From NCBI GenBank assembly GCA_018266795.1, contig JAFDZV010000036.1:26971-90970 (forward strand): a stretch of 64,000 nt of DNA, given 5' to 3'. The position numbers and the translations under genes are program-made. The DNA is from Bacteroidota bacterium. Lineage in GTDB: Bacteria; Bacteroidota; Ignavibacteria; OLB7. Every line of letters starts with the position of its first letter. Positions within the stretch are counted from its first letter, which is position 1. Under the pieces are notes generated by a model, which did no database searches, was not told where the DNA came from, and saw nothing but the letters and a program-made list of their open reading frames with translations. This document shows, one piece after another, positions 6,001-33,025 of the stretch.

Positions 6001-8741
6001 ACGTCTCCGTGAAGGCAACCGCGTCCTGGACCGCTCCGGATGCCGACATCTCCAAGGCTTCGCTGGTGGGCTACGTCGCGGATGTGATAGACTACCTTGC
6101 CGCGGGGGCCGTGGCCGTGCCCGCGCCATCGGTGGAACTGGACTTCTCGGCAGCATTGACCGTGACCGATCCCATCTTCCAGGTGTGGGTGAGCATGAAG
6201 ATCAGCCGTACCGCTCCGCTCGATCCGGACGTTGCCGATGTGACTGCGATCCGCGAGATCGTGGACGGCGTGGAGCCGTTGCTGGATCCGGCGCCGATCG
6301 GCCAGGCGGACTCGGAGGAAAAGATGCTGCGCCGTTTCGCCGCGGCGTTCGAAGGAGTGTTCACCACGCTCAAGCTCGCCACCGGGCTTTCGCGCATCGA
6401 TGACGGCCAGGGCTCATCGCGCACGCGGCTCTGGGCCGTCTCCATCGGCCAGCAGGGGACGATCTCCTGCACGATCGATGCCGCGCAGAACTTCTTCTTC
6501 GCTCCTGCGCCGCTGGCGCAGGCTCCGGCGAGCGGCACGGTTCAGGTGGACGCCTACGTAACAGGCAACGGGTTGGCCGGCAACCCGGAGTGGAAGCAGT
6601 ACGATGCGGTGGATGTCGACGACTGGGCGCGGCGCCTGATCGGCGCAATCGACACAGTGTTGCTGCCGCAGTATGCCATGCCCGGCTACCTGCTCGATCT
6701 GGGGCGCGCCGCAGCAGGCCCTGCGCCGGCCGACGGAATTGTTGATGGCTATATCAAGCGCATCATCGCGGCGAAGGAGAGTCTTGCAAACACGATTGCC
6801 GGCACGGTGACCTCGATTCATAACGAAGCGGGAGGTGACCGCGATGCCGCGGCCGATCTGCTGCTGCAGCGAATGCTGGTGCGCCTCTCTGCAGCATACG
6901 AGTTCGATGCGGTTGTGCAGCTTGGTGCCACGATTACATCATCGTACGCCGCGAACGGCGCGCCGAAGTTGTACGGCGAGCCGAGCGGTCGCGTGATGCG
7001 AGGCGATGTCGGCATCGATGACATCGATACCACCGCCGGTGCACAACCGGAGTTCACAACCTCAACAGCACGTATTCCCATGGCGAACGGGAATACATAT
7101 CTGACATATCTGTTCAGCTCGCAACAGGGTGAACCGGAGCGACTGATGGATACCAGAATGAAGTTCACGGCAACCGCCATCGAGCATCAGATCGACTCCA
7201 TTGTGGGGGTTGCGGGATATCAGGCATCGTCGTGGCTTACATTCATCAGGCCGATCGTGTTCCCGTCCGTTGGGCAGAACGCACAGCCGGAGTTCGCCGT
7301 CAAGGTGCCGATCCTCAACCGTGCGCTCCCGGCGGTTCCGACGCTTCTGGAGCAGGACATGGCAACGAACGTGGCTTCGAATCCGGGCGTTGACCTTACG
7401 CTTGCGCAGACGCGCGGCTGGACGTACGACTATGTCTACGATCGCGTGTCGCTCGGCACGTACGATGTGATCTTCACGGCACCGCGGTTCAACGTGCATC
7501 CGAACGAGATGCCGAAGCCGGGCGGGATCGACGAGCCCGATTTGTTCGCGACGCTGGCGGAGTTCGACTACATCTGGGATCTGCTGCAGAAGGATCTCTT
7601 CGAGGCGCTGCCGAATGTTCGGCAGTCCGGTCCCGCCACCGATGATACCCGTGCCGAGGTTGCGCTGCGGGTGTTCACCGAGCTCGTGGAGCGGGCGGCG
7701 CTTGCCTGGATGGCATGGGGCTGCTACTACGGTGTGTATGTACCGACGTACGAAACCAACGAGCGCTATCGCTATGTGATCAGCGAAGACGAGGAGGAGG
7801 TGACGATCGAAGGCGTAACGGGAATCTGTCACGTGATCACCATCCGCCTGTGCGACGGCACGCCCGACGTGGAGCTGCCGTGGGTGCTCATCGACGGATT
7901 CACGCCGGTCGTCCTCTCCAGCACGCCGACCGCCTGCAGGTTCTGCTACGGCTACATCGATCCGGTAACGCAGCAGCCGACGCTTCTGCAGACTGCCGAC
8001 GCGCTCACGATCCGCAACCGGCGTGTGATGTTCGAGAACCTCAACATCCTTGCACAGCAGAACGCGTGGGGCGGCGTCTATGCAGCTCGCAATATGAATC
8101 TGTTCCAGGGTGATGCCGCCTGCAACGCCGGCGCGCCGCGGCACACGAATCCGGCGTTCGTCTATCGCACGCCGATGGTTCGCTTCGGAAGCCTGCTGAC
8201 GCCGCTGATCGAGTACGACCGGCCGATACTGATCCGCGATCTGGGGCCCAACCCCGGGGTGCGCACGATCGGTGAGCACGTATCGGCCATGTTCACGGCC
8301 TTCTTCGAGGGGCTCTGGCAACAGAACGATCCCGCGATCTGCCGGAGGATCATGGCAACCTGCCGGTACGACTATCAACTGGACAGCGCCTCCGTTGCCG
8401 CCGATCCGGTGGTGGTGACGCTGCCGATTCACATGGCACCGCCGTTCGAGTTCGTGATACCGTACGATGAGGGAGAACTGCCCGATGACACGTTCACCTA
8501 TGCGGCCACGGACTCCATCACCACCTGGTTCAACAAGCGGTATCCGGAGCGGGGGCACGGAGTGCTGGTGTTCGATATCTCGGTGTACTCCAGTCTGAGC
8601 GCGAGCGACAAGCTGCCGGTCTATCGGATCAGCAATCTCCAGCTTTCGCTGAACGACGTGAGCGACCTGCAGGAGCCGCCTGTGGATCCGCCGGACGGAA
8701 TCACGATCTGCCCGGCATGGGTCGGCAACCCGGGCGCATGA
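1..8741 (+). CDS. Giant protein, paralog A (5'-partial; at least 2,910 aa in window) with tandem LysM-like modules and a conserved Gly/hydrophobic core.
   Basis: The ORF runs from the window edge with no in-frame stop upstream of the ATG at 9. Alignment with paralog B (15654-25769) implies about 400 aa are missing beyond the window. Core segment GFEILYKKVTESIGVYQIELRLPD...FPFLGSGGFYFAMLEGAT...GIGLSLGVGK is about 75-80% identical to paralog B. LysM-like modules are seen at nt ~3120-3860 (e.g. YQVAPGDTLRIVAAGAFY, KVTSIAALKTKYGVS). The C-terminal block NAWGGVYAARN...RTPMVRFGSLLTPLIEYD is shared with paralog B. G/C-rich third codon positions. Confidence 0.8.
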   Translation, partial: ISMDDDTTPLQSMAVLPGGPSIDALRLPNRLTSAVPIVLEDVSLTYNVGARRVTEFNLALRSEQHWVILPAFAGWPAVEWLGVNVVGFNLAITNPFSSTRRVTAKLYGTLRLLDLADIDFEILRTPSQWHLAASMNTEFTVQDLIDKITDPAGPRDSWVSAFGAIKIISLEATYDTPGGNGLDGGFTFSGEVDVDWTVALPNAPDVSVTVKTIRVSVQSLTLPGGNRSRSFAVVGTVRLFNSLNVQLSFEYNNGPYRIGISTHHLSGQYDSATTAFSISLTNIKLGDLIRKVADLIGVRDVGLDGGWAFIQDINLPTTTLKIYLKDLNLKYEARFDFTPNLDLGFITIVSVAVQYTTTNQFRVLVDVKPFGSQNTTSFTLRPGEQGNSGVPGTAAKVFELQTLALGQRLTFADQTAVRNVSDALARITSAFDVPAGDLHPLCANDKLKYDASAGIIFGTDLSLLGALHLLLVFSDRSVAGVRLEVNSTRLRFLNGLGFEILYKKVTESIGVYQIELRLPDAIRQIDVGQVSITIPIIALDLYTNGNFRVDLGFPKNNDFSRSFTLQVLPFLGSGGFYFAMLEGATASRLPDDFDRSTGVFKPVLEFGIGLSLGVGKIINKGIFNAGLSLTFEGILEGVLAFFNSNTSAQENEMYYWMRGTFAVVGRIQGSVSFAVINANVSIVAYARIGVTLESRKPIELFFEAGVEVNLTVQIGIGWLSTDINCSFSMTIRESFLIDAKPLGNGPWSTGRAHLLPEAHGGEAPAARVAVAHDIPRPDWAPIKWTNPGELVLEFRPDFTVAGPAAGPVATHYVGMLFLRSVSDAERTADMLAGTDSMSDFELFADAMLLWGLNSVRGNGELSGDETINETLLGPAVGLEELEDLYDELTDAAGGAAPFTSDEVIEFLTGYFSVVIQPLAINKAPGHPDENKSPYYRPTMAVFPMIPELSISADWVLDTYDAVFKEVCRVPRDYRNEIREHFAQMAVQFQNTLETEANPDMEFPADVTETSIAEMVFEDYFLMIMRVVVNAAIDLLRGYTQPGDKVTSIAALKTKYGVSTTETVKANRRTPLKVGAVLNVSGLYATALDLDTIGSLLVRAGADVTFEMVDELASIHADRPGFLKGGATFIYDGEPITIGASETLTQLGARLEPWASPGEFAWIISDLGVLAASTSLYVPLAAQHAITVAADDTLAKVAARMLTFGSTGNADFVGEMATLNADVPGVLREGTIVFGSQEPYQVAPGDTLRIVAAGAFYESVAALAAAIKDEAATVAPGIRLVVPPLTAAAAMNGQDAPTLVSMAMARGLDPTELGQLNVAVTPLFDSTSTVQAPNVATIALSELRTEMYKRKVLVQVSGITSCFAQPGLRLPMPSGWAPGQNDFWMLPTDTEPLYWLTGQQFELPVFNDPVTPAPSFVVWLDVPQNAVGWYTLRPHPFELTPDPNKPVSVPFDAAAMTYLDSLATAPFTTEIDWIRSLPKFRLEDSRLPLTKPVEIQMPEQLSFGNGGGTVPSNVVPTLWSFSEVLRRSIGTTSGLAFALNITRVTAGAEEMVDTVARYTWATAIKVRVRIARKPDAGIVPMTYDIDGADPEGMLSLERILADNGADIRNVHILYRGGGDSGTAAYRSAGTGGVSALILRSNLSTLSNPQASKGLDPKSVPSPVTNYFNSPDYRRATLRLLWQGSIVRSGGYHLYYRENTPGRGLPDDVFDADGSTEITVLVSYNGTTVPRYANRVIIGDAIDPTWGIVATVQPNNAAYAASQVKVLMIPPGHAGFQLYRHLRTIAFNGPTATDTVHSLYSLLSYRVLGVPGQQGFAESIEALPKGPGRQLIPDPTFAPPPNSAPYEVMIPVAPLALDPIPAGMRATTNAPYVESPYRNIGATMIVRTDWRDVFGNSTMSGWAPVSAQTGFPPPQPLKDVPVFIGYTDRLVGLGRWPSTRSGYKLGGIGPDGKQRAIIRLELDNRRYTAGPDGPISATTKRSYLLADLDVYRTAYYQLICSDVSVKATASWTAPDADISKASLVGYVADVIDYLAAGAVAVPAPSVELDFSAALTVTDPIFQVWVSMKISRTAPLDPDVADVTAIREIVDGVEPLLDPAPIGQADSEEKMLRRFAAAFEGVFTTLKLATGLSRIDDGQGSSRTRLWAVSIGQQGTISCTIDAAQNFFFAPAPLAQAPASGTVQVDAYVTGNGLAGNPEWKQYDAVDVDDWARRLIGAIDTVLLPQYAMPGYLLDLGRAAAGPAPADGIVDGYIKRIIAAKESLANTIAGTVTSIHNEAGGDRDAAADLLLQRMLVRLSAAYEFDAVVQLGATITSSYAANGAPKLYGEPSGRVMRGDVGIDDIDTTAGAQPEFTTSTARIPMANGNTYLTYLFSSQQGEPERLMDTRMKFTATAIEHQIDSIVGVAGYQASSWLTFIRPIVFPSVGQNAQPEFAVKVPILNRALPAVPTLLEQDMATNVASNPGVDLTLAQTRGWTYDYVYDRVSLGTYDVIFTAPRFNVHPNEMPKPGGIDEPDLFATLAEFDYIWDLLQKDLFEALPNVRQSGPATDDTRAEVALRVFTELVERAALAWMAWGCYYGVYVPTYETNERYRYVISEDEEEVTIEGVTGICHVITIRLCDGTPDVELPWVLIDGFTPVVLSSTPTACRFCYGYIDPVTQQPTLLQTADALTIRNRRVMFENLNILAQQNAWGGVYAARNMNLFQGDAACNAGAPRHTNPAFVYRTPMVRFGSLLTPLIEYDRPILIRDLGPNPGVRTIGEHVSAMFTAFFEGLWQQNDPAICRRIMATCRYDYQLDSASVAADPVVVTLPIHMAPPFEFVIPYDEGELPDDTFTYAATDSITTWFNKRYPERGHGVLVFDISVYSSLSASDKLPVYRISNLQLSLNDVSDLQEPPVDPPDGITICPAWVGNPGA

Positions 8742-9118: not shown

Positions 9119-10429
<1,311 letters not shown>

Positions 10430-10684: not shown

Positions 10685-13600
10685 ATGGCTTATTTCAATC
10701 GACATCCGGACTCCGCTCTCTACACCTCGTCGCAGGGATACGGCGGCGGTTACGTAGCGTTCTATCTCTACGGCGACGAGTTCCCGGAGACGCTGACGAT
10801 ACCGGACACGTGGGAGACCCGTGTGGGCTACTATCTCTTCCTGAAGGAGCCGCCTCCGGAGAACGGAATGACGACGTTCGTCGCCGCCGTCAACGGAGCG
10901 CTTTCCGGTTCCGAACCCTGCCATACCAGCTTTGTCTGGTACACCTACAATGGGGCGGATGGATCGCTTGTCGAGATCAAGACGGTGAGTACGAATGCCG
11001 TTCCCGTGGATGACGAGGAAGGGGAGGATCCGGACGAGGACGAGGGGGAGGAGGATTACGAGGACGAGTACACGGTGCTGGTAACGGAGACGGCGCTCTT
11101 CAACTTCGGTGGCTACAAGCTCCCCATCGGCGTGAACATGCGTGTGGTGTACGAGCGCGACGGGGGCAACGACGTCACCGGATTCATCTTCGAATATCCG
11201 GAGGATCCGCAGCCGCGGTATCCGGCGGAGGCAGTTGTCGGGCCGCCCGATCCGCAGCGCAATCTTCACCTGACGTTCAATGGGGATGGCCGAGGATGTT
11301 TCGAGGGGATAGGCTTCATCAGCGATTATTCCGACGATGAGGAAACCGGCTGGTATGTCGGACTGCGATATGTGCTGGCAGTTGGCTGCGGGCTTGTTCC
11401 CCAGTATTACCCGGTGTTCGATTTCGGCGATGAATTGCGTCCGCTGCTCGAGATGCGTTGGGATCCGACAAATCATCTCGATCGCAACCGAACATATCTG
11501 GCATTTACCGGAGAATCGATTGCGCTTGTGGAGGACCCTCCGGATTCCGGCGTGTTCCGGCTGGAGGTTCCGGACAGCCCGGAAATCCTTCCCACATTCT
11601 TTCGTACGGTTACCGGTGAGCGCATAGCCTTTATTCCGGTTACCGAGGGAGAAGGCCGGTCCAAGCTTCTGTTCGAGACACGCGATACGGCTCCGATTGA
11701 ATGCGGCGGCTTCTGCTACTATCTGGTGCCTGCCGGCGAGTTCGAACTGCTGCTGCTGGACGAGTGCGGCGACCCGCTGACGCTTGCTTCCCAGAAGGCG
11801 GAAATGCCCGCCCGCTTCATGTGCGGCCTCTCCGGCATCGAGTCGGTGGGTTTCATGCCGCGCAACGAGTGCTTCGATGGCGATCGCATTCTCTTTGTTC
11901 CGCATTGCGATGCCTTCGTGCCGGCGTTTCCGATCAACGGAAACGGGGGCGGCCTTCCGGATCTCGACGCATTGCGTCTGATTGTGGAAGGGGAGTGCAC
12001 TGCGTGGGTTGGATTCATCGGGCCGAACGGCGAGGCGCGCGAGTTCGTGTACTATGCCCAGCCGGAGGATGCTCCACTCTACACGCGGCCCGGTGTTATC
12101 GCGGGAAGTGCACCGCTTCCGCTTATGGAGCCCGTGGCAGCGCTGTTCGAATCGGTATGCAGCCAGACCTGCTTTCCGGTGGCGCCGCCGGCGGGGGCTT
12201 ATCCTTCCGTTGATGCACCGAACCGTCCAACGTTTCTGAGCGCTCTGGAGCATCAGATCATAGGCCCCTGGCGCCGTGATGTGATCCGCAGAACGGCTGC
12301 GACGGCGCCGGATATCATGGAGCCGGCGACGTCCAAGCCAAGCGGCACTGGTGCCACCCCGCAGGGGTTGATCGCCGATGTTGCAGTGGATTCCTGGACG
12401 TCGCTTCTCCTGGCACAGAACCAGCGGACAAGCACTGTTCTGCGATTCTGGTATCCGGATGAGACACTGAAGGCAGCGTTCCAGACAAACCAGTTGTTCC
12501 TGGTTGCATCGCTCGCGAGCCATTTCACGATACCGAATCCGCAGCAGCCAACGGACAGGCGCTTCGAATCGCGGGTGAACATGGCGGATTGGAAGTTCGA
12601 CCTCAAGCTGTCGGGGAACCAGTTTCAGCGTCTCGACAATCCTGCGGCAGATGATTTCCATGATCTCAACAACACGCTGATCTTCAAGTTCTCGCCCGGC
12701 TCCATCTCAAGCCGGCTGCGCGATCCACGTTCGTGGACCAATCCCGGTGACTTCAATCGTACCAACGATGGGCTGCTCGATCTTCTCGCGCAGCGTCTCT
12801 CGGCATATGTCGCATATGCCAGAACACTTGCCTCCAGCAACGATCCCAAGGTCAGGGCCAGATATGCGCCGTTCATCGAGGTGATCGATGACGATGAATG
12901 GACCGGGATAATCGGTGTGAATATCTCGATCGACATGCAGCTGCTTCCATCGCAGTTGAGTGCATTGAGCGCAGGGGTTGATCAGAATTTCTTCGTGGCG
13001 CATCACATCGTGGTGGAGACAAGCTATGTGAAATTCTCCGAGCAGGGACAGGGACTCATGCCCGCCGAATGCTCGCTGTTTGGTCTGGTGGATTACAAGA
13101 GGCGGCAACCGGCTGTGCCACAGGGAGACGGCGGTAACACTGCTCCTGCGGCGGACTTCGATTTCTCCGTGAGCGACTTCCTCGCCGTGTTCCGTAACGG
13201 GTTGCTCAAGGAGTTCTCGTGCGCCGCAGATCTGAAGATCAACAGATTGTTCGGGGACAACATTACCGGGCTGACCGGAAATGATGGCGCAACGAACAAC
13301 GGTATTCGTCTGATCGGCCAGTACGATGCGCTCAGCAACACGCCGTCGTACGTGTTCACTCTGGAGGGTGGCGGGCAGTTCCAGCTTCAGAGCGCCATTC
13401 TCGAGTGGGTGGAGATTCGCAAGGCGCAGTTCTCGGTTCGGGAGGAGGCCGTGCCCAACAGGGGAAAGGACATGTATTGTGCCTTCGTCTTCTGGGGGGT
13501 CATGAAATTCCGCAGCATGGGGCTGACGGGGGACGCCGGGAACCTGGATATTTTCTCCTACGATGCGCTTGCATTCGAAGGAATGGCGCTGCGTATGAAG

Positions 13601-14260
13601 TTCAACATGGATTCGCCATCCGACAGGACATTTACCTTCGACAGCAGAACGATCGCTCTGGATACGGCCCCCGCGGTAACTATTCCGCGCGGCCAGAGCC
13701 TCGCAAAGAAATTCCCGATGCGGCTGCAGACGTTCATGTCATCGGACGCGGGGAAATTGCCCAAGGACCTGGGATACGTGGCTGTGGGTACGCAGTTGGC
13801 AGCGCAGCCGGTTGCGGCGCCATGGTATGGTCTCGACTATACGCTGAACCTCGGCACACTTGGTGAGTTTGCCGCCAATGCCGGGATTACCGTGCAGCTT
13901 GCCGTTACGTGGAGCCCTGGAGGGCCTTCGCAGCCACGCGCCCAGGTGTGGTTGAAGTTCCCGGGTGTCGGCGGCATCGGGAATGATCTGTTCAGCCTGG
14001 AGGGGGTCGTGAAATTTTCTGCGAGCTCGTACAGCCTGAAGGCCTTCACTGACGACGACGATATCGGATACCTGCTGACGCTGAACAGTATGGCGCTCCG
14101 CATTCTCGGCGTTGGAATTCCGTTCGGAGGCGGGCCGAATATCTACGTCTTCGGTCCGCCCAAGAGCCCGGCCCTGCTGAGCCCTACGGCAACGCCGAGC
14201 GACGATGCCCTGGGCTGGTTTGCCGTGTATCCGAAGCCTGCACCTCCGGGCGGCGGCTGA
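10685..14260 (+). CDS. Large hypothetical protein (1,191 aa) with an acidic N-terminal stretch and several Cys clusters.
   Basis: The long ORF has non-shadow composition. The likely start is MAYFNRHPDS, because the upstream in-frame part is an Arg/Pro-rich shadow. It contains the acidic run DDEEGEDPDEDEGEEDYEDEY and Cys-rich segments (ECGGFCYYL, CGDPL, FMCGLSG, NECFDGD, PHCDAF). No recognised catalytic motif. Confidence 0.65.
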   Translation: MAYFNRHPDSALYTSSQGYGGGYVAFYLYGDEFPETLTIPDTWETRVGYYLFLKEPPPENGMTTFVAAVNGALSGSEPCHTSFVWYTYNGADGSLVEIKTVSTNAVPVDDEEGEDPDEDEGEEDYEDEYTVLVTETALFNFGGYKLPIGVNMRVVYERDGGNDVTGFIFEYPEDPQPRYPAEAVVGPPDPQRNLHLTFNGDGRGCFEGIGFISDYSDDEETGWYVGLRYVLAVGCGLVPQYYPVFDFGDELRPLLEMRWDPTNHLDRNRTYLAFTGESIALVEDPPDSGVFRLEVPDSPEILPTFFRTVTGERIAFIPVTEGEGRSKLLFETRDTAPIECGGFCYYLVPAGEFELLLLDECGDPLTLASQKAEMPARFMCGLSGIESVGFMPRNECFDGDRILFVPHCDAFVPAFPINGNGGGLPDLDALRLIVEGECTAWVGFIGPNGEAREFVYYAQPEDAPLYTRPGVIAGSAPLPLMEPVAALFESVCSQTCFPVAPPAGAYPSVDAPNRPTFLSALEHQIIGPWRRDVIRRTAATAPDIMEPATSKPSGTGATPQGLIADVAVDSWTSLLLAQNQRTSTVLRFWYPDETLKAAFQTNQLFLVASLASHFTIPNPQQPTDRRFESRVNMADWKFDLKLSGNQFQRLDNPAADDFHDLNNTLIFKFSPGSISSRLRDPRSWTNPGDFNRTNDGLLDLLAQRLSAYVAYARTLASSNDPKVRARYAPFIEVIDDDEWTGIIGVNISIDMQLLPSQLSALSAGVDQNFFVAHHIVVETSYVKFSEQGQGLMPAECSLFGLVDYKRRQPAVPQGDGGNTAPAADFDFSVSDFLAVFRNGLLKEFSCAADLKINRLFGDNITGLTGNDGATNNGIRLIGQYDALSNTPSYVFTLEGGGQFQLQSAILEWVEIRKAQFSVREEAVPNRGKDMYCAFVFWGVMKFRSMGLTGDAGNLDIFSYDALAFEGMALRMKFNMDSPSDRTFTFDSRTIALDTAPAVTIPRGQSLAKKFPMRLQTFMSSDAGKLPKDLGYVAVGTQLAAQPVAAPWYGLDYTLNLGTLGEFAANAGITVQLAVTWSPGGPSQPRAQVWLKFPGVGGIGNDLFSLEGVVKFSASSYSLKAFTDDDDIGYLLTLNSMALRILGVGIPFGGGPNIYVFGPPKSPALLSPTATPSDDALGWFAVYPKPAPPGGG

Positions 14261-14371: not shown

Positions 14372-15637
14372 ATGCGCAGAATCAATGCGGCGGTATATCT
14401 GCTGCTGTTAACCATAGCGGTCGCAGCGCACGCTGCTCCAATGCAGACCTTGAAGATATACCACATCGGTGTGGGGCAGGGAGATTGCACATTCATCATC
14501 GCGAAAAAGGAACAGTCCAGGAAAGCACCAATCGTTGTCAGTGCGTTGATCGATGTTGGTTCCGGGCCGATCGTGCGAGCGGGGCGCGATCCAGCGTTGC
14601 TTTGGGCTGCCCTCCTGCAGATTATGGGCGAGAATTCAGTGCCGACGATCAATTATCTGATTCTCTCGCACCTGGATGAAGATCACATGGGGGCAGCGGA
14701 GGGATTGCTGTACGTTCTCGAGCGTCCCAATTTCAAGAAATATGCCAAGGGAATGATTGTGGTGGACAGAGGATGGCTGGACCCATCGACGAAGCCGACG
14801 GGGACAATCTATACCGGATTCGAGGGGCGTTTCGGAACCGGAAAGCCGTGGAGGCGGAAGAAGATTGATGTGAAGGAGAATTTGTTCGATGGCTACTTCG
14901 ACAACATGAAAATGTGGTGCGTTGCCGCCAACGGAGTGTCGCTGCAACCGAGAAATGGTGATCCGACAAAATGGAACAGGAGAGTGCTTGTACCGTCTGG
15001 TTCCCTGAATGAGAACGATCGCTGTTACGGTTTTCTGATCGAGTTCGATGGCTTCCGGTACTTCACGGCCGGCGATATGACCGGGTACGACGTCGACAGC
15101 CAGCACAATATCGAGCTTGGGTTCTCCGATTTTCTTACCCAGTGCATGCAGCGTGCGCAGCCCTCGGATGGGAACTGCCATGTCTGCTGCCTGAAGGTAA
15201 ATCACCACGGCAGTATCAACAGCACCAACCCGGATTTCGTGACCGCCACAAAGCCGAGGCTTGCGGTATTCTCGTCGGGTCTTCAGATGTTCAGCAACGG
15301 GCGACTACCACAGCAGGCCGTTGCAACACGGCTTCGGACAAATAACGCAGCGTGCAGTTTCTTCTACACCTACTGTCCCACGAATATTGCCGATCCGTAC
15401 GACGGTACGGTTCAGGACAACGATCCACTTTTCTTTACCGATCAACTGGATCGATGGCAGGATATCGTTGTCTCTGTTTCCCGCCCGAGTGCAAATCTCG
15501 TGGCAAATCGATTATACGGCGATGATATCACGATGAAGGTACAGGCCTGCTATCGTGATCGGTCCACGTTTGCCCGCACATCCAATCTGCGTGATCTGCC
15601 GGACGTTGTCTGCAGCAAGAAACACCCTGCACCGTAA
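14372..15637 (+). CDS. Secreted stand-alone ComEC/Rec2-type metallo-beta-lactamase-fold domain protein (putative nuclease or hydrolase), 421 aa.
   Basis: SD ggagag sits 6 nt upstream of the ATG. The signal peptide is MRRINAAVYLLLLTIAVAAHAAP. ComEC-type MBL motifs are present: KIYHIGVGQGDCTFII, ALIDVGSG, LILSHLDEDHMGAAEGL and KVNHHGSINSTNPDFVTATKPRLAVFSSG. Confidence 0.7.
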   Translation: MRRINAAVYLLLLTIAVAAHAAPMQTLKIYHIGVGQGDCTFIIAKKEQSRKAPIVVSALIDVGSGPIVRAGRDPALLWAALLQIMGENSVPTINYLILSHLDEDHMGAAEGLLYVLERPNFKKYAKGMIVVDRGWLDPSTKPTGTIYTGFEGRFGTGKPWRRKKIDVKENLFDGYFDNMKMWCVAANGVSLQPRNGDPTKWNRRVLVPSGSLNENDRCYGFLIEFDGFRYFTAGDMTGYDVDSQHNIELGFSDFLTQCMQRAQPSDGNCHVCCLKVNHHGSINSTNPDFVTATKPRLAVFSSGLQMFSNGRLPQQAVATRLRTNNAACSFFYTYCPTNIADPYDGTVQDNDPLFFTDQLDRWQDIVVSVSRPSANLVANRLYGDDITMKVQACYRDRSTFARTSNLRDLPDVVCSKKHPAP

Positions 15638-15653
15638 ACAGAGGAAGACTGCC

Positions 15654-18600
15654 ATGAGCCTTCAAACCTTCTACAATTCGCTTGGTGGAGACACCCCGCC
15701 GAATCCGATTGTCTTTGAGCTGGATGAGGATACTGTCGATCCGATCCTGATGCTGCTTACGCTCCTCGAGGTGGATCGGCTGGAGGTCGACATCGTTGGT
15801 GAGGGTGAGCATGATCCGCCATTCGGCATGGTATATACCGCGGACGACCAACCCATGACGATTCGTGGGAGCGCCGAGATGTACGGTGTTGCAACGACCG
15901 TGCTTCTTGTGTTCGTTCAGGACGCCGAGACCGATGCAATCCAGGGAACCCTTACAGCAGCGCTTGATATTACTTCGATTCAGGCGCTCTCGGATTCCGG
16001 TATCGCCGTCATCGCCAACATGGCGGACATCGCTGCGATGCCCGAAGCCGGAGTAGTGCTGGAGGTACTGGGCAATCTTTCGTTGACCACGTCGACGGCC
16101 GATCGCACGTTCGTTGTTCAGTCCGGGATCAAGGACGGAACCACCCGTGTGTTCCAGTCGCCCGCGGTTTCATTTACCGGATTGAACGTACGGGTTGATC
16201 GCGTCATTGGCGATCCGGCCTCGGAAGATGGGCCTGGTGCTCCTGTCACGACGTTGAGTGTAAAGGGGGCGTTCACGGTCTGCGGCCAGGCGCTGGACGT
16301 GACGGTGGATATTCCCGTTGGGGGAGTGGGCTCCACAATGTGGCGCTTCGCATTCACCAGTCCAACCGGATTCGGTCTCGATTCGCTTGTGGATCTGCTC
16401 AATGCATTCGGTGTCGGCGGGCAATTCGCTGCACTTCCCGATCGCATCAGATTGCTCTCCGCATTCCGGTTCATGGGCTTCGAGGTGATCGCCGATCCCT
16501 TCCCGTCGATCGCAAGCATCGAGGTCCTCTTTGCGATCACCGGCGACTGGAACGTCGTAGACACCGTTACGCTGCACAATATTACGTGCTCGCTGCTGGT
16601 CCAGAATCCGTTCAACGGACCATCTGCGCTTCTGAGGGCGAGCGGTGTGTTTACCGTTGGCGGCATTGATCTGGGGACGACACTGCTTATCCCGATAGGT
16701 GGTGGTAACTGGCTCGTGCGGTGTACAACCGACAGCGACAGCATCAATCTGCTCACGATGTCGCAACTGCCGGGGCGCTTCGACCTGAGCTCGCTTCAGG
16801 CACCGATCGGCACACAACAGCAGCTCGATGTTGTTCTGAACGATCTTACGGTTGTCTTCAATCCCATTGCGCGCACAATTGGAGCGATCTCGATCGCAGT
16901 GCGATATGCGGCTACGTGGAATGCCCTTGTCTACAATGGCGAGACGGTACTGAGCGTAACCAATCCTCAGTTCGTGATCGCCATCGATTCACCTCTGTCG
17001 AATAATCGCCGCGTCACGGCAAGCATCTCAGGGTTCGTGGCCTTTTACGATCTGATCAATGCGAGTTTCGAGATGACCAGATCGGGAGGAAGGTGGGCGT
17101 TTGCCGCCGAGACCACCAAACCGATTCGTCTCCAGGCGATCTTCGACAAGTTTTTTCCAACGTATCCGGAGTGGCTGGACGCGATCAAGGGATTTTCAAT
17201 CACCCAGATCGTGTTCAATTATACGACGTCGGGCGGGAGCCAGCCCGGTGTCTTCAATCTGAGTGCCCGCATCGAGGCCAATTGGGATTATGCACTCGGC
17301 GGCCAGACCGGTTCCATTCAACTGACCTCCATCAGCGCATCGGTTGGATCGCAGCCCGATCCTGCTCAGCCTGCGCAGCGGATCTGGACGTTCGCCGTTG
17401 CCGGCACCGTGCGCCTGTACGACACGTTCAACCTGACAGGCTCGTTCCAGTATCGTACAGGCAATGGTCCCGGATCGGGTGCCGAGATCGCCGTCGAGTT
17501 CGATGGCGTGCGTGGTGTCTACAACTCCACCAACAAGCGCATCGACGTCTCACTCGGGAATCGCACCGTCGGCGATCTGGTAAATACGCTCAACCGATTG
17601 GTCAACGGTCCCGCCACGCCGGACTATCAGTTCGAGTCGCCATGGGATCTCGTTGCCGGCATCAGCCTGCAGGGGCTGGTATTCAGCTTCTACTTCGACG
17701 GCAACAGCCAGAAGCGCTGCGGTATCACCTATCGTTTCCCGACGCCCGTCGATCTCGGCTTCATGAAGATTGTCTCGGTCTCGGTGATTGTGACGACCAC
17801 CAAGAAGATTCGCTTCGAGGCCGACGTGATTCCGTTCACGGCAACAACGCCGTCGCCGTTCGGATGGAATCTCGATGATGCGAATGTCCCGAAGCCGCCG
17901 GGCCGCTCGGCACGCATCCTCGATCTCAAGTACCTCGGCATCGGCCAGCGGCTCGAGCTGATGTCGGCGAATGCCACCCGCTCCGTTGACGACGGGATCG
18001 CTGCGATGAAGACCGCGTTCGCGATCCCGTCGGCAACCAGCCATCCGCTTACAGGCATGCAGGCCGGCCTGCGCTACAACCCGCAGATGAACTGGCTTGT
18101 GGGGGCGGACTTCCAGTTGTTCGGGGCGTTGGCGATCGGCTTCATCTTCAACGACAGCAACATAGCCGGTGTGCGCGTTGGCGTGGATGGCGATCGCTTC
18201 CGCTATCTCGGCGGCCTGAAGTTCGAGATCCTCTACAAGAAGGTAACCGAGAGCATCGGCGTGTACCAGATGGAGATCCGCGTGCCGGATTCCATCCGCC
18301 AGATCGAGCTGGGGCAGGTTTCGATCACGCTTCCGATCATCGCCTTCGAACTCTACACGAACGGCAATTTCAAGGTGGACTTCGGATTTCCGAAGGACAA
18401 TGACTTCTCCCGTTCGTTCATGATTCAGGTGTTTCCATTCCTGGGAGCCGGTGGTTTCTACTTTGCGCTGCTGGAGGGGGCAACATCGCCGCGTCTGCCG
18501 GCCAACTACAATCCGAACACCGGTGTGTTCCGTCCCGTGTTGTCGTTCGGCATCGGGCTCAGTCTGGGAGTGGGCAAGAGCATCAACCGCGGCATCTTCT

Positions 18601-21600
18601 CGGCGCAGCTCAGCATCACATTCGAGGGAATTCTGGAAGGGGTGATCGGCTTCTTCAACCCGACGAGCGGGAGCGGAACCGAGATCTACTACTGGCTTCA
18701 GGGCACGCTCGGCGTGGTTGGCCGGATCCAGGGAAGCGTGAGCTTCGCCGTCATTTCCGCAAGCGTCTCGCTGGTTGTGTACGCGCGTATCGGGGCCACA
18801 TTCGAATCATACCAACCACTCGTGCTCTTCTTCGAGGCCGGTGTGGATGTGAACCTTACGGTGCGCATCGGCGTTGGCTGGCTGAGCACCGATGTCAGTT
18901 GCTCCTTCTCCACCAGCATCCGCGAGTCGTTCACGATCCCGGTGCGCGGCAATGGAACGGCGCCGTGGGTTGGCGGCGGCCAGCATGCGTTGGGCCACGG
19001 CGCCGGGCCGCACGGTATGATCGGATCGAGTGCGGTGGCGCCGAAGGAAATGGGGGTTCTCCGCTGGAGAACGATCGACATGGCCGGCACGGGCGACGAA
19101 GTTCTTCTGGAGTTCCGTCCGATGTATACCGTGGCGGAAGGGCCGAACGGCCAGAAGTCCAACTACGTGGCAATGCTGTTTCTGCGCAGTGCATCGCAAT
19201 CGGAACGCGAGAACGACCATCGGACTGTCAACGAGATTCAGGCAACGGACTTTGAGGCGCTTGCAACCGGCATGTTGGTGTGGGCGATCAATGCATCGGT
19301 GAATGCCAACAACCAGACTGCCGTCAATGCGGGCAACATCGAGACCGAACTCCTTAACAAGGACGTCCGGATTGATCACCTGCAGGAAGTGTTCGATTCT
19401 CTGGCACGCCGGGCAGGAGCGGCTGCGAGTTTCGAGACGCAGCAACTGCTGGATTTCCTCCACCTGTATTTCACGATGGTGATCGTCCCATTGCAGCAGA
19501 ACCGGCATTCACCGAATGGTGGCAGCTCCGATGACCGGCCCACGCTGGCAGTGTTCCCAATGCCGCCGGACCTGGAACTGAAGGCGTTCTACGATGACGC
19601 GACCGTGGCCGACATCGACTTCGCCTCCTACAACATGGTACCGGACAGCTATTCCGGCGAGATCGCCAACCACTTCAAGGAAATCGCCATGCAGTTCCAG
19701 ACAGGGCTGGAAGCGAGCGTTGACGCGAATGAAATGCAGGCTGCGCCGGAGTATACGGGCGACGAAGAGTCCATGGCATCCTATGTCTTCGACGACTATT
19801 TCATGCTCCTTGCGCGTGGGGTGGTACATGCGGCCATGGATCTGCTGAAGAATTATTCGATTAAATCTGCCGGGGAGACTCTTGCCGCCCTGGCGACCAC
19901 CTATGGGGTTTCCCCGGGTGAGGTGGGCGTTGCAAATGCGGATCTGGCGATCACCGCACCGGCCACACTGCAGCTTGGCGGTGTGGCGGTAACCACGACG
20001 GCTACCGATACGCTCGCGGCATTGGCCTCGGACAGGGGGTTCCCGAACGACAATGGTTTCCTGGAGAGCCTCGGTCGCCTGAATGCGCTCACACCCGGAC
20101 TCGTGGCAACGGACACGGCGATCACGATCGGCGACGACTCAATCGATGTTGCAGAAAACGAGACGTTGTACTCCATGGCGACGAGGCTCCATGCTTCACC
20201 GGGTGCGGTTGCCGTCACGATTGCATCGCGGCAGGTGCTCAATGCCGATACGAGGCTGCTTCTTCCAACGGTTCCAACCACGTATCTCACCGTTGGGAGC
20301 GAGCCCAATCTGCGCTGGATCGCGTCCAACTACGTTGCAACGCCGGACTTCCAGTTCGAGACGGACTTCGCGCTCGCGAACGCGTTCGTTCCGGGGATCT
20401 TCGTTCCGGGAACCATCTTCACGATGGCGACCGGAGATGCGTACCAATCCATCGCGTCCGACTCGCTTGCAACAATTGCGGCGGCGGTGGGCTTCACCGT
20501 GGAATCGGTGGCGGGAGCCAGCAACGAGCTTTCCGGCATCATCGCTCCCGGAGTTCGCCTTACCATCCCTCCGGTGTCGGTTGCGCTGGAGGGTGCGCCA
20601 ACGTTGCGCCAGGTGCAGACAACCTATGGAGCCGGCATCGCGGCAGTGGCTGCGGCCAACGCCGCAACCCTTGTGCTGGGTGCGGCGGGCGGTTGCATTG
20701 AGCTGCCGAATGTGAAGAAGATCAAGATCGGAACGCTGAGGAAGGAAATGCTGCAGCGCGATCTGTTGATCGATCTTGGCGGCACGGTCTCGCGATTCAT
20801 GGTGCCGGGCCTGCGGCTGCCGCTCCCGACGCAGCAGCAGAATCCCGAGCCCGGCCTGTGGCCGAACTGCGAACCGGATGGATTGTATCGCCTTACCGGC
20901 CAGCAATTCGAGTTGGACAACCCGCTCGGCGGGCAGAACGGACCCGATCTGGATGTTATGCTGGTTGGCGGAGCCAACGCAGGCTGGTATTCGATGCGCG
21001 GGGACGCGGAGAACTACGAGAACCCCGAGAACGACGAGGTGTATGAAAATCCTGTGCGTGTCACGCTCGAGTGGGCTGACCTCGACAAGCTCGATCAGCT
21101 TGCCGCAGAGCAATTGCTGGTTGACGCGTCGCCCTACCGGAAGATCCCGATGTCGCAGACGCAGTTGAAGCGCTTCCCGCTTGGGCGTCCCGTGCAGATT
21201 CAGATGTCCGGTGCGTTTGCCTATGCCGTTGGAACGGCTCCCAACGGCGTGTTGCCGACCATCCTCAACTTCTCCGAGGGAATGCGCCGCGTGCTGGCGG
21301 TGGCCAGGAATCCGGAGCAGCGTTTCGATCTCGCGCTGGAGCGGCCGGACGGATCCGCTGCGGCGCTGAACGTCTACTCCTGGGCTACGGCAATCACCGT
21401 GAAGGTGCGTCGCGTTCGCCTGCCCGATGGTTCCATTGCTGCAATGACCTACGAGCTGGACGGTGCCGACGCCGAGGGGACGCTGACGCTGGAGAAGATC
21501 GTTGCCAGGGGAGGAACGTCCGGCTTCGGGTTCATTCAGGATATACATCTTCTCTTTGCCGGCCAGGGAGTTGGAGCGTTGCAGACCGACGGGCCGAATG

Positions 21601-25885: not shown

Positions 25886-26938
25886 TCACCGCTCCCGAAA
25901 CTCCTGCGGTGCATTCGGCACCAGTGCGGGATCGGCGAGGTCCAACTCCAGCAACGTCTTTCCGTTGTTCGCCTCCACGCCGACGGTGAATGCGCCGAGT
26001 GATTGGAACGTGTACGCGAGCGTGCGATCCGGGCCAAGCTCCGCCGTCACCACATCCGGTTTGAACGTCGGATGCAGATGAATGGCAACCTGGTTCGACA
26101 TCACCTGCGCTTCGTCCGATGCGGTGACCTCCAGCGTGACGCGGAAGAAGGTCCTGCTGGAATCCACCGGCGTTACCGTTGCGCCGATCCTCCAGCCGTC
26201 GCGATCGGCGAGGCCGCCGAATCTCCCCTTTGCGGGATCGGACGCCATCTCCTCGTTATCCGCGTGGCCGGCGACTCCGCGAATGCCCGGAGCCGGCCCC
26301 TTGAACGTCTGCGCTGCTGCGGGCCGTGCTGCCGCGGCTGCCGTTCGCCAGATGACGCTCGCAAACTTCACCTGATTCTCCTTCGCCTGTTCGATGTCCG
26401 CCTGCACAGTCTCGCCAACCTTCTGTGCCTCCACGGATGCAGCGGTAGCCGACTGCGATATCTCCATCGCCGCCTCCGATCGCAGCTGAGCCGCGGCGGA
26501 TTTCCGCATCGCCCGCTCCGAATTTCGTTTGGCGTCGGCCGCCAGTGCGATCACCTGCCTGGAGACCGAGCCGATGAAGGCGCGCGAGGAGATGGCCGCC
26601 GCAAGACAGAAGCCGCCGTAGATGAAGAACTGCCATCCGGAGAGCTGCGCCGGGTTCGATGTGTCCACCAGTTTGCTGTCCGCGATCTTCAGGAAGAGCG
26701 GCACCAGAAACGCGGCGCCGACACCACGTACCACCGGCTGCCACACCGATGTGTCGGTAGGCACCGGTTGAGCCGGGACCGGCGTGGAGGCCGGATCGGC
26801 GGCCGATGCTCCGGTTGTGTCCGGTTCCGGCCGGCGCAGCGCGGAACGTCCATCCGGAAAGCCGAAGTAGCTGACCAGCCCTCCGAATATCCCGGCGAGA
26901 ACCGTGAGCGTGATGAGAATCGGGATCTGGGTTTCCAT
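25886..26938 (-). CDS. Membrane-anchored hypothetical protein (350 aa) with 2 predicted TM helices, an Ala/Gln-rich coiled-coil-like linker and a C-terminal globular domain.
   Basis: The N-terminus METQIPILITLTVLAGIFGGLVSYFGF and the segment WQFFIYGGFCLAAAISSRAF are hydrophobic. The AAAQLRSEAAMEISQSATAASVEAQKVGETVQADIEQAKENQVKF region is coiled-coil-like. The C-terminal domain GRFGGLADRDGWRIGATVTPVDSSRTFFRVTLEVTASDEAQVMSNQVAIHLHPTF has no match I can name. Confidence 0.6.
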   Translation of the reverse strand: METQIPILITLTVLAGIFGGLVSYFGFPDGRSALRRPEPDTTGASAADPASTPVPAQPVPTDTSVWQPVVRGVGAAFLVPLFLKIADSKLVDTSNPAQLSGWQFFIYGGFCLAAAISSRAFIGSVSRQVIALAADAKRNSERAMRKSAAAQLRSEAAMEISQSATAASVEAQKVGETVQADIEQAKENQVKFASVIWRTAAAAARPAAAQTFKGPAPGIRGVAGHADNEEMASDPAKGRFGGLADRDGWRIGATVTPVDSSRTFFRVTLEVTASDEAQVMSNQVAIHLHPTFKPDVVTAELGPDRTLAYTFQSLGAFTVGVEANNGKTLLELDLADPALVPNAPQEFRER

Positions 26939-32323: not shown

Positions 32324-33025
32324 CGTTCTGTTGTGGTCTTGTGGTGGTTGGATATCGTATCCGCGCGATGCTTCCCGTGGGCCTGGGGGGCAGGCGTGCA
32401 TATGGTGATGCCGCGAAGGCTCGAACATCGGATGGCGGCACGGCCTTGCGGCTGCGCAGACACTCCGTTGTTGCCAGAAGCCGGTAATCGGAGCAGCCGA
32501 TGCCGAGTTCGTGCTTGTCGTAACGGAAAAAGCGAGCGTCGGTGGTTTCAGGCTTCGCGCCGCATCAGTGCGGCGCTTGAAGCAACGGCAAACATACGAT
32601 GCAGGCGCGAGTTATGCCAGAGGAGTGTCGGTGGTTGGTCGTCAGCTGATCGGTGTTCCCGGTGGCGGGATCGCTTGGGCCCCGTCTTGCCGGGGGATTG
32701 ATCTGGAAGGGACGTGAGCCCGGGGCGACAGGCACCTCCAACGTTCAGTGATCGATCAGATCCCGACAACGCCGCGCAGTTCCATTCACGTGTGGTGCAG
32801 CCGACACCGTACCATGGCTACGTAACCTCGCGCTGCCAACGGCTCGCCCCAAGCACAAAGCCCCAAGTCCCAAGCTCCAAGTCCCAGTTTGCACGAGATG
32901 GTTAACTTGAAACGTCATTGGCAGGTGCGCGGCGTCAGCACGTAGCCCGCATCCATGCCTTCGGCAACAGCGCGGACAATCCGCCTGCAATCCCTCCGGC
33001 AGCAACTCTTCCAGCTTCCATCCGC

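Follow-up and report, generated by a model that had tools for sequence, protein, structure and literature searches.

A predicted exported ComEC-type MBL-fold enzyme encoded between p1191 and a LysM giant protein in Bacteroidota

In the window (the whole stretch of 64,000 nucleotides analysed here), a gene for a free-standing MBL-fold protein lies just upstream of a gene for a giant protein with LysM-like repeats, which raises the question whether this protein is an active enzyme and what its role is next to the giant. The nuclease domain of ComEC has been known chiefly from a DNA-uptake channel, and a whole clade of free ComEC-type domains that are exported and belong with a giant-protein module would represent a novel biological role for this fold. 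In addition, no other component of the two-gene module, which spans many phyla and is also carried by large plasmids, has an activity that can be recognised and tested, and the module has cultivable carriers (Chitinophaga niastensis, C. hostae, Hymenobacter terricola, Pectobacterium, Pseudovibrio and Mycetohabitans); the MBL protein therefore provides a practical experimental handle on it.

The MBL gene, its fold and its ligand positions

The features of the MBL gene are:
14372 to 15637, + strand: MBL gene (NCBI JST22_16120), 421 aa, predicted exported MBL-fold phosphodiesterase of the ComEC/Pce clade
14372 to 14434, + strand: predicted Sec signal peptide, aa 1–21 (sequence rules, AF2 helix 2–18, homologue N-termini)
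14471 to 14485, + strand: motif I VGQGD, aa 34–38; G37 and D38 invariant
14669 to 14686, + strand: motif II HLDEDH, aa 100–105, of the ComEC-type HxDxDH form; H100, D104 and H105 invariant
15014 to 15016, + strand: N215, putative equivalent of the motif III Asn, placed by position, 20 residues before motif IV; invariant
15074 to 15076, + strand: motif IV D235 (AGD), presumed metal-bridging Asp; invariant
15203 to 15214, + strand: motif V HHGS, aa 278–281, aligning to the ComEC HHGS; invariant
15359 to 15634, + strand: clade-specific C-terminal β domain (aa ~330–421) with conserved Cys414, from alignment and AF2; not a T9SS sorting domain

The reading frame extends from the ATG at 14372 to the TAA at 15635–15637, with a Shine-Dalgarno-like AGGAGA just 5' of the ATG. 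The N-terminus of the protein consists of MRR, INAAVYLLLLTIAVAA and AHA followed by AP, which corresponds to a charged n-region, a hydrophobic h-region and an Ala-X-Ala site. Signal peptides of the MBL proteins were called by eye from sequence rules, and signal-peptide-like N-termini are found in 18 of the 19 giant-associated homologues. This is in agreement with the first-pass annotation, which had described a gene for a protein with a signal peptide and the motifs VGQGD, HLDEDH and HHGS. In the AF2 model, residues 2–18 form a helix, and the MBL fold begins with its first β-strand at residue ~24, so close behind the signal peptide that there is no room for an OB fold. The giant-associated MBLs share three conserved cysteines, and the mature proteins have 6–11 cysteines each.

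Homologue alignments place the start of giant B at the ATG at 15654, and not at the upstream GTG at 15555. The 16 nt that had been taken as the distance between the Shine-Dalgarno sequence and the ATG are in fact the intergenic gap between the MBL stop codon and the giant B start codon; the Shine-Dalgarno-like GAGGAAG (15641–15647) is located 6 nt 5' of this ATG. Such a gap cannot support the co-translation of the two genes that had been suggested from it; it is likely that both genes belong to one operon.

The nearest solved relative of the MBL protein is the extracytoplasmic nuclease domain of ComEC, as shown by searches with the MBL profile against the PDB (ComEC, 3e-19; Pce, weaker, 4e-9) and by Foldseek with the MBL model (Pce, 1.6e-12; ComEC, 2.5e-12). 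The αβ/βα MBL fold is closest to the ComEC CTD, the identity to the ComEC nuclease domain being only 18%, and the closest known proteins are the C-terminal nuclease domains of ComEC/Rec2 (Moorella glycerini, 9IC4; M. thermoacetica CTD). The TIGR00361 match (1.2e-11, 43.5 bits, as compared with a cut-off of 190) covers only model positions 424–513, which is the MBL region. Unlike ComEC, the window MBL is free-standing and soluble, has its own signal peptide, lacks the polytopic competence channel and the N-terminal OB-fold DNA-binding domain, carries an extra insertion of ~80 aa and a C-terminal β domain of ~90 aa, and is encoded inside a giant-protein operon, not in a competence locus. The absence of the ComEC membrane channel, as noted previously, is borne out by the length of 421 aa and by the single N-terminal hydrophobic segment, as well as by the limited extent of the TIGR00361 match. 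The protein is also not a class B (B1/B2/B3) metallo-β-lactamase: the blaAHM match is partial (19.5 bits, with a cut-off of 590), and the structural matches to class B enzymes are weak (E>=2e-3).

In ComEC, motif II is H598-x-D600-x-D602-H603, and the residues H725...S728, which match HHGS, contact the substrate and the 5'-phosphate (PMC12455585). ComEC has a motif III Asn and functions as a Mn-dependent nuclease/phosphodiesterase outside the cytoplasm, and Mn-dependent ComEC nucleases of experimentally established activity natively carry HxDxDH (PMC12455585, PMC8579336). Judged by its sequence, the window MBL retains the full ComEC-type ligand set, being D38, H100, D102, D104, H105, D235 and H278/H279, with N215 as the putative motif III Asn, together with S281. 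The residues D38, D61, H100, D104, H105, N215, D235, H270, H278, H279 and S281 are invariant in 19/19 associated MBLs, every tandem paralogue included, despite an overall identity of 25–45%. Position 102 is an aspartate in the window and in its closest relative (L001) and a histidine in the remaining clade members.

The first-pass annotation had considered the activity to be doubtful because of the HLDEDH sequence, and had worried that loss of the metal ligands would make the protein a pseudo-enzyme. HLDEDH is not a defect, since HxDxDH is the motif of active ComEC nucleases and since the ligand positions are kept; no ligand loss is seen in any of the 19 associated MBLs. A protein in which the MBL fold is preserved only as a structural or adaptor subunit could be expected to differ from the textbook HxHxDH in motif II and to score below the Pfam Lactamase_B threshold, as is the case here, but the fixed ligand positions, at this level of divergence and with a raised dN/dS, and the use of HxDxDH by active nucleases make this very improbable. 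The MBL protein is apparently a catalytically competent enzyme.

The similarity to Pce/CbpE of Streptococcus pneumoniae (1WRA, 2BIB), a teichoic-acid phosphorylcholine esterase, counts against a nuclease, Pce being the second-closest structure and a wall-polymer esterase, and most clade members having the Pce-like HxHxDH. It is possible, although we consider it unlikely, that the MBL protein is a Pce-like envelope phosphodiesterase that removes or modifies substituents in phosphodiester linkage, for instance phosphocholine or another phospho-head group, on glycopolymers of the wall or outer membrane, after which the LysM giant binds, crosses or assembles in the wall; the protein would then be a maturation or assembly helper and not a nuclease. 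The window MBL differs from Pce/CbpE in having no choline-binding repeats, a putative motif III Asn (N215) instead of a His, HHGS instead of NHHHD, and an Asp (D102) at the second position of motif II.

The slot between p1191 and the giant gene

The neighbouring genes of the window are:
9 to 8741, + strand: giant gene A, truncated at the window start, 39–40% identical to giant B; second tandem copy of the system
9119 to 10429, + strand: collagen-like (Gly-X-Y) protein with a conserved C-terminal domain, first of four genes in the Kapabacteria-like clade arrangement
10685 to 14260, + strand: p1191, a 1,191-aa all-β protein, universal upstream partner of the giant
15654 to 25769, + strand: giant gene B, 3,371 aa, with a fast-evolving N-terminal region, a hydrophobic core, LysM-like repeats and a long C-terminal part
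15654 to 16253, + strand: giant B residues ~1–200, present only in MBL-associated giants, 16–30% identical to the closest relative

The true conserved core of the system, which was missed in the first-pass annotation, is p1191 plus the giant. A p1191 of ~1,190 aa followed by a LysM giant of ~3,300 aa is found in ~28 loci of many phyla, also on large plasmids, and among the 30 loci recovered, every one of sufficient length has the giant behind p1191. The hydrophobic core of giant B (aa ~600–1110) is highly conserved. The gene JST22_16100 lies between a p1191 paralogue (JST22_16095) and giant A.

Searches of Pfam, PHROGs, PADLOC, PDB sequences and Foldseek with p1191, giant B, the profile of the giant N-domain and domain X (described below) gave no informative match, the sole matches being to LysM and low-complexity collagen matches to tail fibres. 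The AF2 model of p1191 (from eight sequences, of mediocre quality with pLDDT 66.5 and pTM 0.45) has no significant PDB neighbour, and a homologue search with giant B residues 1–1150 returned one irrelevant match. A phage origin of the giant was considered and rejected, since none of 50,697 phage records contains a match to the core. Nothing relevant on the module, its accessions or the combination of giant, LysM and MBL was found in the literature searched, and none of the annotations and publications searched assigns a function to the p1191–giant module.

It was also overlooked previously that the slot between p1191 and the giant is variable and that the MBL gene occupies it in certain lineages only. 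One or more MBL genes occupy this slot in the window and in L001/L009, L039, L040, L002/L025, L013-15, L012, L017, L032 and L045, so that the pairing with the giant gene, the conservation of which in other genomes had been proposed as a check, is indeed found elsewhere. At L041, which was chosen blind from the MBL clade, the MBL gene is again behind p1191, on a short contig that does not extend to where a giant would be expected. The arrangement with MBL genes in the slot was found in Bacteroidota/Kapabacteria lineages only, where all loci except Aquimarina have 1–4 tandem MBL genes between p1191 and the giant, and the position is kept across Kapabacteria, Chitinophagaceae, Hymenobacter and Flavobacteriales. 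In this one bacterial phylum the MBL is a fixed, fast-evolving accessory of the giant module.

In the other lineages the slot is empty or holds an unrelated domain of ~550 aa, domain X. Some loci have domain X as a separate protein, and in others it is fused to the giant as its N-terminal part: free domain X corresponds to the ~570 N-terminal residues of those giants whose gene comes directly after p1191 (HMM E 1e-33 to 1e-57). This is also reflected in the length preceding the giant core, which is ~1,110–1,260 aa without a slot gene and ~545–645 aa with a slot gene. An assignment of domain X as a GT-B glycosyltransferase, from its motif pattern, was supported by no tool and was discarded.

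Stand-alone, signal-peptide-bearing ComEC-type MBLs form a large (COG2333-like) family, with 60,825 cluster representatives in the profile search (E<=1e-3) when the ComEC proteins themselves are counted in. As in the window MBL, the signal peptide is directly followed in this family by L-x-I-H-H-I-x-V-G-Q-G-D, and HHGS is present. Both the HxHxDH and the HxDxDH forms occur among the 146 best profile matches. The architecture of the MBL is therefore not new; what is new is its context with p1191 and the giant. The giant-associated clade is distinguished from the wider family by its own Cys-containing C-terminal domain and by the obligatory p1191/giant neighbourhood. In an NJ tree whose labels give the genomic context, 16/16 relatives of known non-giant context fall outside the group that descends from the last common ancestor of the 21 associated MBLs, which form one monophyletic subfamily; the window gene falls within this clade and lies on the same strand as, and between, the p1191 and giant-B homologues. 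An earlier NJ tree, in which the representatives carried no labels, was dropped because its clade took in too many sequences (86/162).

Most members of the wider family are free-standing enzymes that are secreted, without giant neighbours in 41/42 metagenome loci and likewise in the P0005 and P0009 contexts, and many of its Bacteroidota members carry T9SS sorting domains, the secretion tails of the non-associated relatives being Por_Secre_tail or dockerin domains. This would suit an independent scavenging nuclease or phosphodiesterase that shares the operon, syntenic with the other genes yet functionally uncoupled from them. Such independence is quite improbable given the conserved slot, the blind-picked MBL beside p1191 and the clade structure, and the associated clade has lost the tails of its relatives (no Por_Secre_tail/CHU_C sorting domain is found in the window MBL, and neither Por_Secre_tail nor dockerin in the clade) and has gained a C-terminal domain of its own.

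Joint exchange of the MBL gene and the giant N-terminus

The comparison of the window with its closest relative delimits one further feature:
14513 to 17166, + strand: cassette divergent from the Kapabacteria orthologous locus, comprising most of the MBL gene and the first ~500 codons of giant B

Within this cassette the nucleotide alignment is lost, and it resumes on both sides at ~85% identity. The collagen-like protein (85%), p1191 (93%) and the giant from residue 600 onwards (73–98%) are highly identical to those of the relative, whereas the MBL (43%) and giant residues 1–500 (16–48%) are divergent, which indicates that in the nearest relative the MBL gene and the giant N-terminus have been replaced together as one cassette. 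The identity of third codon positions at conserved residues is 67–77% in the flanks, 52% in the MBL gene and 44% in the giant N-terminus. The joint exchange points to the seat of specificity of the module.

The MBL is also the fastest-evolving component of the module, as shown by the dN/dS values in Chitinophaga, which are 0.18–0.33 for the MBLs and 0.04–0.20 for the other components. The giant N-terminus is not unusually divergent in Chitinophaga (86–92%), so that joint hypervariability of the MBL and the N-terminus is documented in one genome pair only. Profile comparisons show that the first ~120–220 aa of the giant are present only where an MBL occurs, whereas the region from residue ~200 on is universal, yet fast-evolving. 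Co-occurrence of the whole ~550-aa giant N-terminus with the MBL is therefore too strong a claim, and residues ~1–200 are the candidate for an MBL-specific partner region.

Known polymorphic toxins vary at the C-terminus and have the immunity gene downstream. In the present system, the variable part is the N-terminus of the giant and the upstream gene, which encodes a conserved enzyme. A periplasmic MBL could shield the producer from this variable N-terminus by binding it or by reversing its product, the tandem copies being an immunity array, and the adjacency to the exchanged N-terminus, the arrays of 2–4 diverged paralogues, the fast evolution and an export signal like that of periplasmic immunity proteins are all consistent with an antidote. 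It is nevertheless improbable: besides the layout, which is opposite to that of known polymorphic toxins, the giant N-terminal region is not enzyme- or toxin-like (its only invariant residues are G, P and W, and it has an internal repeat pattern), immunity proteins of the binding type would not keep a whole catalytic site invariant throughout the clade, and the p1191–giant module exists without any MBL in many phyla.

Proposed role of the MBL protein and comparison with other systems

The best explanation, which we favour with moderate confidence, is that the MBL is an exchangeable periplasmic nuclease or phosphodiesterase subunit of a conflict-type giant-protein module. The protein would be exported by Sec and would probably stay in the periplasm or cell envelope, because the T9SS and dockerin tails of the non-associated relatives are missing. 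It may bind two metal ions, Mn2+ being likely for the HxDxDH form, and is predicted to hydrolyse phosphodiester bonds, most probably of DNA or another nucleic acid. It would serve the module as an exchangeable enzymatic subunit and could dock, by the C-terminal domain that is peculiar to its clade, onto residues ~1–200 of the giant. Against such a meeting counts the absence of a signal peptide from both the giant and p1191. The behaviour of the module fits with an inter-organismal conflict system by indirect hallmarks, being its patchy multi-phylum spread, plasmid carriage, tandem paralogues and cassette exchange and the raised dN/dS of the MBL. Two options are about equally probable: the MBL may be the A-component of a giant binary toxin and attack the DNA of a target cell, or it may defend its own cell by destroying foreign DNA that arrives at the envelope.

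Large clostridial-type AB toxins are very large proteins without a signal peptide, having an N-terminal enzymatic head, a hydrophobic middle and C-terminal binding repeats. By analogy, the giant could be compared with these toxins, with domain X as the head in other phyla and a conserved hydrophobic centre. There is no detectable similarity in sequence or fold, the enzyme is here separate and predicted to be Sec-exported, and p1191 has no counterpart in these toxins. Tentatively, p1191 and the LysM giant may be an undescribed horizontally mobile, modular conflict machine with an exchangeable head, being domain X in Proteobacteria, Acidobacteriota, Firmicutes and Spirochaetes, and, as its replacement, 1–4 Sec-exported ComEC-type nucleases docked on the giant N-terminus in Bacteroidota, and acting as a binary DNase toxin or an envelope barrier.

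Prevotella NucD is not an MBL but an Endonuclease_NS protein. The anti-phage MBL nucleases (Avs1a, Lamassu LmuA-MBL, the RT-associated MBL of DRT, and 6A-MBL) have weak profile similarity to the MBL sub-branch of the window MBL. The matches are partial and far below the family cut-offs (PADLOC LmuA, 6e-10, and RTasMBL, 1e-4; NCBIfam Avs1a, 3e-4, and 6A-MBL, 3e-3), and apart from such weak MBL-only matches no PADLOC system matches the locus. The anti-phage MBLs are cytoplasmic and lack signal peptides, and their partners (STAND NTPase, LmuB/SMC, RT) have no PADLOC or Pfam match among the neighbouring genes. These nucleases illustrate that this fold has been recruited repeatedly as the effector of conflict systems.

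The MBL gene and its surroundings

The collagen-like gene and the genes of the 1,191-aa protein (p1191), the exported ComEC-type metallo-β-lactamase-fold protein (MBL) and the 3,371-aa LysM giant (giant B) are all on one strand of the window, where the following features are found.

9–8741, + strand: giant A, cut by the window start; a 39–40% identical paralogue of giant B
9119–10429, + strand: collagen-like gene with Gly-X-Y repeats
10685–14260, + strand: p1191 gene, 1,191 aa, no family match
14372–15637, + strand: MBL gene, an intact 421-codon ORF; AGGAGA precedes the start
15654–25769, + strand: giant B, sole match LysM
17454–18983, + strand: core of giant B (aa ~600–1110), where conservation of the giant is highest
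25886–26938, − strand: YLATT plus prokaryotic YEATS gene, 350 aa (Pfam 5.5e-22 and 2.1e-8)
28808–32428, − strand: multidomain protein, 1,206 aa (GT2, methyltransferase, TPR, GT2-like, GT4/GT1)

The MBL gene is not a chance ORF, because an identical protein is deposited as JST22_16120 ('Bacteroidetes bacterium' MAG), an orthologue is found at E 8e-93 and the AF2 model (8 sequences) has a pLDDT of 81.5, with a pTM of 0.88. The N-terminus, MRRINAAVYLLLLTIAVAAHA followed by AP, is organized like a Sec signal peptide, with a charged region, a hydrophobic region and Ala-X-Ala, and the first β-strand of the fold comes directly after this segment (helix 2–18, strand from residue 24). The signal peptide proposed in the first-pass annotation is therefore predicted here as well, by sequence rules and by equivalent N-termini in 18 of the 19 related proteins. 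The same annotation took the 16 nt ahead of giant B for an SD-to-ATG gap. Homologue alignments place the giant B start at ATG 15654 and not at the upstream GTG, and since the MBL stop codon ends at 15637, the 16 nt are the intergenic gap; the sequence GAGGAAG lies 6 nt before this ATG.

A p1191 paralogue (JST22_16095, P0158; 44% identical) is found further upstream on the same contig, which together with the paralogy of giant A means that the system is duplicated in tandem. The collagen-like protein has a conserved non-collagen C-terminal region of ~110 aa and no signal peptide, and its PHROG 'tail fibre' matches are due to the collagen repeats. Its gene is the first one, ahead of p1191, in the window, in the closest, Kapabacteria locus (L001) and in two further homologous loci, L039 and L040. 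Upstream of the four-gene cluster, L001 (1–1255) and L040 (1659–3278) have homologous ~530-aa signal-peptide proteins with PG_binding_1. The YLATT (three-TM)–pYEATS gene, of a conflict-system type, faces the end of giant B in convergent orientation.

Fold, active site and family of the MBL

In Pfam the MBL has only a sub-threshold Lactamase_B match, and its NCBIfam ComEC_Rec2 match (1.2e-11, far under the full-length cut-off) is confined to the MBL part of that model. Structure comparison is clearer, as Foldseek and the profile-versus-PDB search concur: by its modelled fold the protein belongs structurally to the ComEC-CTD/Pce branch and presumably works like the MBLs of that branch. It is not ComEC/Rec2, which has a channel and an OB fold, both lacking here. 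Pce, a true β-lactamase, a T9SS cargo protein and a known defence-system MBL were each rejected as identities.

The motifs noted earlier, VGQGD (aa 34–38), HLDEDH (aa 100–105) and HHGS (aa 278–281), are all found. The doubt about activity raised on account of HLDEDH does not hold, as the pattern H-x-D-x-D-H is also that of the crystallised Mn-dependent ComEC nuclease (H598-x-D600-x-D602-H603; PMC12455585). The ComEC ligands are three His, four Asp and one Asn (PMC8579336), and the difference between ComEC and Pce is precisely the motif II Asp and the motif III Asn (Silale et al.; PMC8579336). In the window MBL the ligand positions are D38, H100, D102, D104, H105, D235 and H278/H279, the invariant N215 is at the predicted place of motif III, and the HHGS serine, S281, is also present. 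Ligand loss, by which a pseudo-enzyme would be recognized, is not observed: all positions from D38 to H278/H279 are kept, and the catalytic positions are retained in every tandem MBL paralogue.

A family profile search of 1.84 billion representatives gave 60,825 matches at E<=1e-3 (ComEC proteins included) and 1,129 at E<=1e-30. Among the 146 best family representatives, motif II is HxHxDH in 111 and HxDxDH in 34, HHGS is present in 134, and nearly all are ~300–700 aa long, with L-x-I-H-H-I-x-V-G-Q-G-D coming immediately after an N-terminal signal peptide. This architecture and the match totals identify stand-alone exported ComEC-type MBLs as a large family; both the domain and the architecture are already known kinds. 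In Bacteroidota, many of these proteins have a T9SS sorting domain or dockerin. The MBLs not associated with p1191 or a giant at L048, L049, L050, L052, L053, L057, L058 and L062 have a C-terminal Por_Secre_tail (T9SS), FlgD_ig/Big_7 or dockerin, and are thus surface or extracellular proteins, unlike the giant-associated clade, from which T9SS and dockerin tails are absent and whose members end in a distinct ~90-aa domain containing a conserved Cys. Residues 88–322 of the MBL also match PHROG 7043 'tail protein' (1.3e-9, profile positions 670–857 of 1077), suggesting that a ComEC-type MBL domain may occur on some phage tail proteins.

The p1191–giant module and its head slot

Scanning species-representative genomes for the p1191 family gave 30 loci, and in every sufficiently long one a giant B homologue comes after p1191 on the same strand. 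The proposed pairing of MBL and giant is kept in relatives, but the conserved core of the arrangement is p1191 plus giant. Among the carriers are Bacteroidota, Terracidiphilus, Pseudovibrio, Roseovarius, Pectobacterium, Aliikangiella, Trinickia, Clostridium magnum, a spirochaete and a Methanothrix MAG. In the last (L011, JAXGJB010000001), p1191, a slot gene and the giant are in an archaeon-labelled bin, by either horizontal transfer or bin contamination. Nine large plasmids carry the giant core too, with no annotation beyond 'LysM domain-containing' or hypothetical, and in those inspected (Burkholderia, Mycetohabitans) a gene of ~1,200 aa again precedes the giant. The core has no match in any phage record searched. 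The giant B core shares 96–98% identity with its Kapabacteria orthologue and ~35% with the plasmid-borne homologues of Nostoc, Tistrella, Burkholderia and Paenibacillus; its several conserved hydrophobic stretches may mark a membrane-active or core assembly region.

The gene between p1191 and the giant is variable. MBL genes are found there only in Bacteroidota/Kapabacteria lineages, namely in the window, the Kapaibacterium MAG, L039, L040, Hymenobacter, Filimonas, the metagenome locus L045, four Chitinophaga loci (2–3 copies) and a Flavobacteriales MAG (3–4 copies), so that copy number differs among species. The slot protein of Aquimarina, Aliikangiella and the spirochaete is unrelated to the MBL; it has ~500–580 aa and is here called domain X (L016:13010–14515, L019:12940–14697, L038:5066–6808). 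This free domain X is homologous (HMM E 1e-33 to 1e-57) to the ~570 N-terminal residues of giants whose genes come immediately after p1191, as in Pseudovibrio, Pectobacterium, Terracidiphilus, Clostridium and Roseovarius (fused at L018, L020, L022, L024, L027, L028, L031 and L034). The giant core is preceded by ~1,110–1,260 residues in the fused giants versus ~545–645 where a slot gene exists. By this Rosetta-stone relation the slot product is predicted to be an N-terminal head that can be detached from the giant, and in Bacteroidota the slot is occupied by an exported MBL instead of domain X. Domain X has no match in Pfam and PDB searches; its motif pattern G-F-G-H-Q ... E-G-Q-G-T looked GT-B-glycosyltransferase-like. 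In the N-terminal region profile of the giants, the first ~120–220 residues occur only in MBL-associated giants. The residues from ~200 onwards are universal but fast-evolving, which rules out the whole region as MBL-specific.

In the context-labelled tree, 24 leaves descend from the common ancestor of the 21 associated MBLs; the three extra ones are on contigs too short for judging context, and all 16 relatives whose context is known to be different lie outside this clade. P0015, a protein picked blindly from the clade, is directly downstream of a p1191 homologue. Neither p1191 nor giant is found in the available sequence, often a short contig, of 41 of the 42 metagenome loci of the wider family. 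The L007/L008 contig (JGI 3300044703) encodes, in order, a 540-aa MBL that has no signal peptide, a protein of 491 aa and a 3,163-aa Laminin_G_3 giant matched by the giant N-domain profile (E 4e-40); this may be a distant, cytoplasmic-MBL variant of the arrangement. An MBL clade tied to the giant module, and the swappable head of the module, were not found in the searched annotation or papers. The enzyme is ordinary in itself; its value is that it alone offers a testable way into a widespread but functionally uncharacterized module.

Cassette exchange and proposed role

Amino acid identity between the window and the Kapaibacterium locus
Collagen-like protein: 85%
p1191: 93%
MBL: 43%
Giant B, residues 1–500: 16–48%
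Giant B, from residue 600: 73–98%

The nucleotide alignment of these loci is lost at ~14513 and is back at ~17166. Third-codon-position identity at conserved residues falls from 67–77% in the flanks to 52% in the MBL and 44% in the giant N-terminus, so that the cassette is older than its surroundings. This pattern indicates that MBL and giant N-terminus were swapped together by recombination and did not diverge in place. Across three species of Chitinophaga, the MBL orthologues share 77–86% identity and have a dN/dS of 0.18–0.33, versus 90–97% and 0.04–0.20 for other module parts.

The MBL has a ComEC-type fold, the complete set of ligand positions, a predicted export signal and a dedicated, conserved placement in the head slot of the module; this placement speaks against the alternative that it is an unrelated scavenging enzyme. 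It would be exported via Sec and, because it has no T9SS tail, would remain in the periplasm or envelope, acting there as a binuclear-metal phosphodiesterase. A nuclease is most likely, since the invariant HHGS, the putative motif III Asn and the ComEC-over-Pce scores favour such a substrate over that of a Pce-like wall-remodelling helper. This putative nuclease would provide the giant module with an enzymatic subunit that can be exchanged, and its own C-terminal domain would probably dock onto the first ~200 residues of the giant. The topology is the weakest point of this proposal, because p1191 and the giant both lack a signal peptide that would bring them to a periplasmic MBL.

The module could serve attack, as a binary DNase toxin, or defence, by destroying incoming DNA, neither being preferred; much less probably, the MBL could be an immunity protein. 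The module has hallmarks of conflict systems, namely patchy phylum distribution, plasmids, tandem paralogues, cassette exchange, raised MBL dN/dS and the YLATT–pYEATS gene adjoining giant B.
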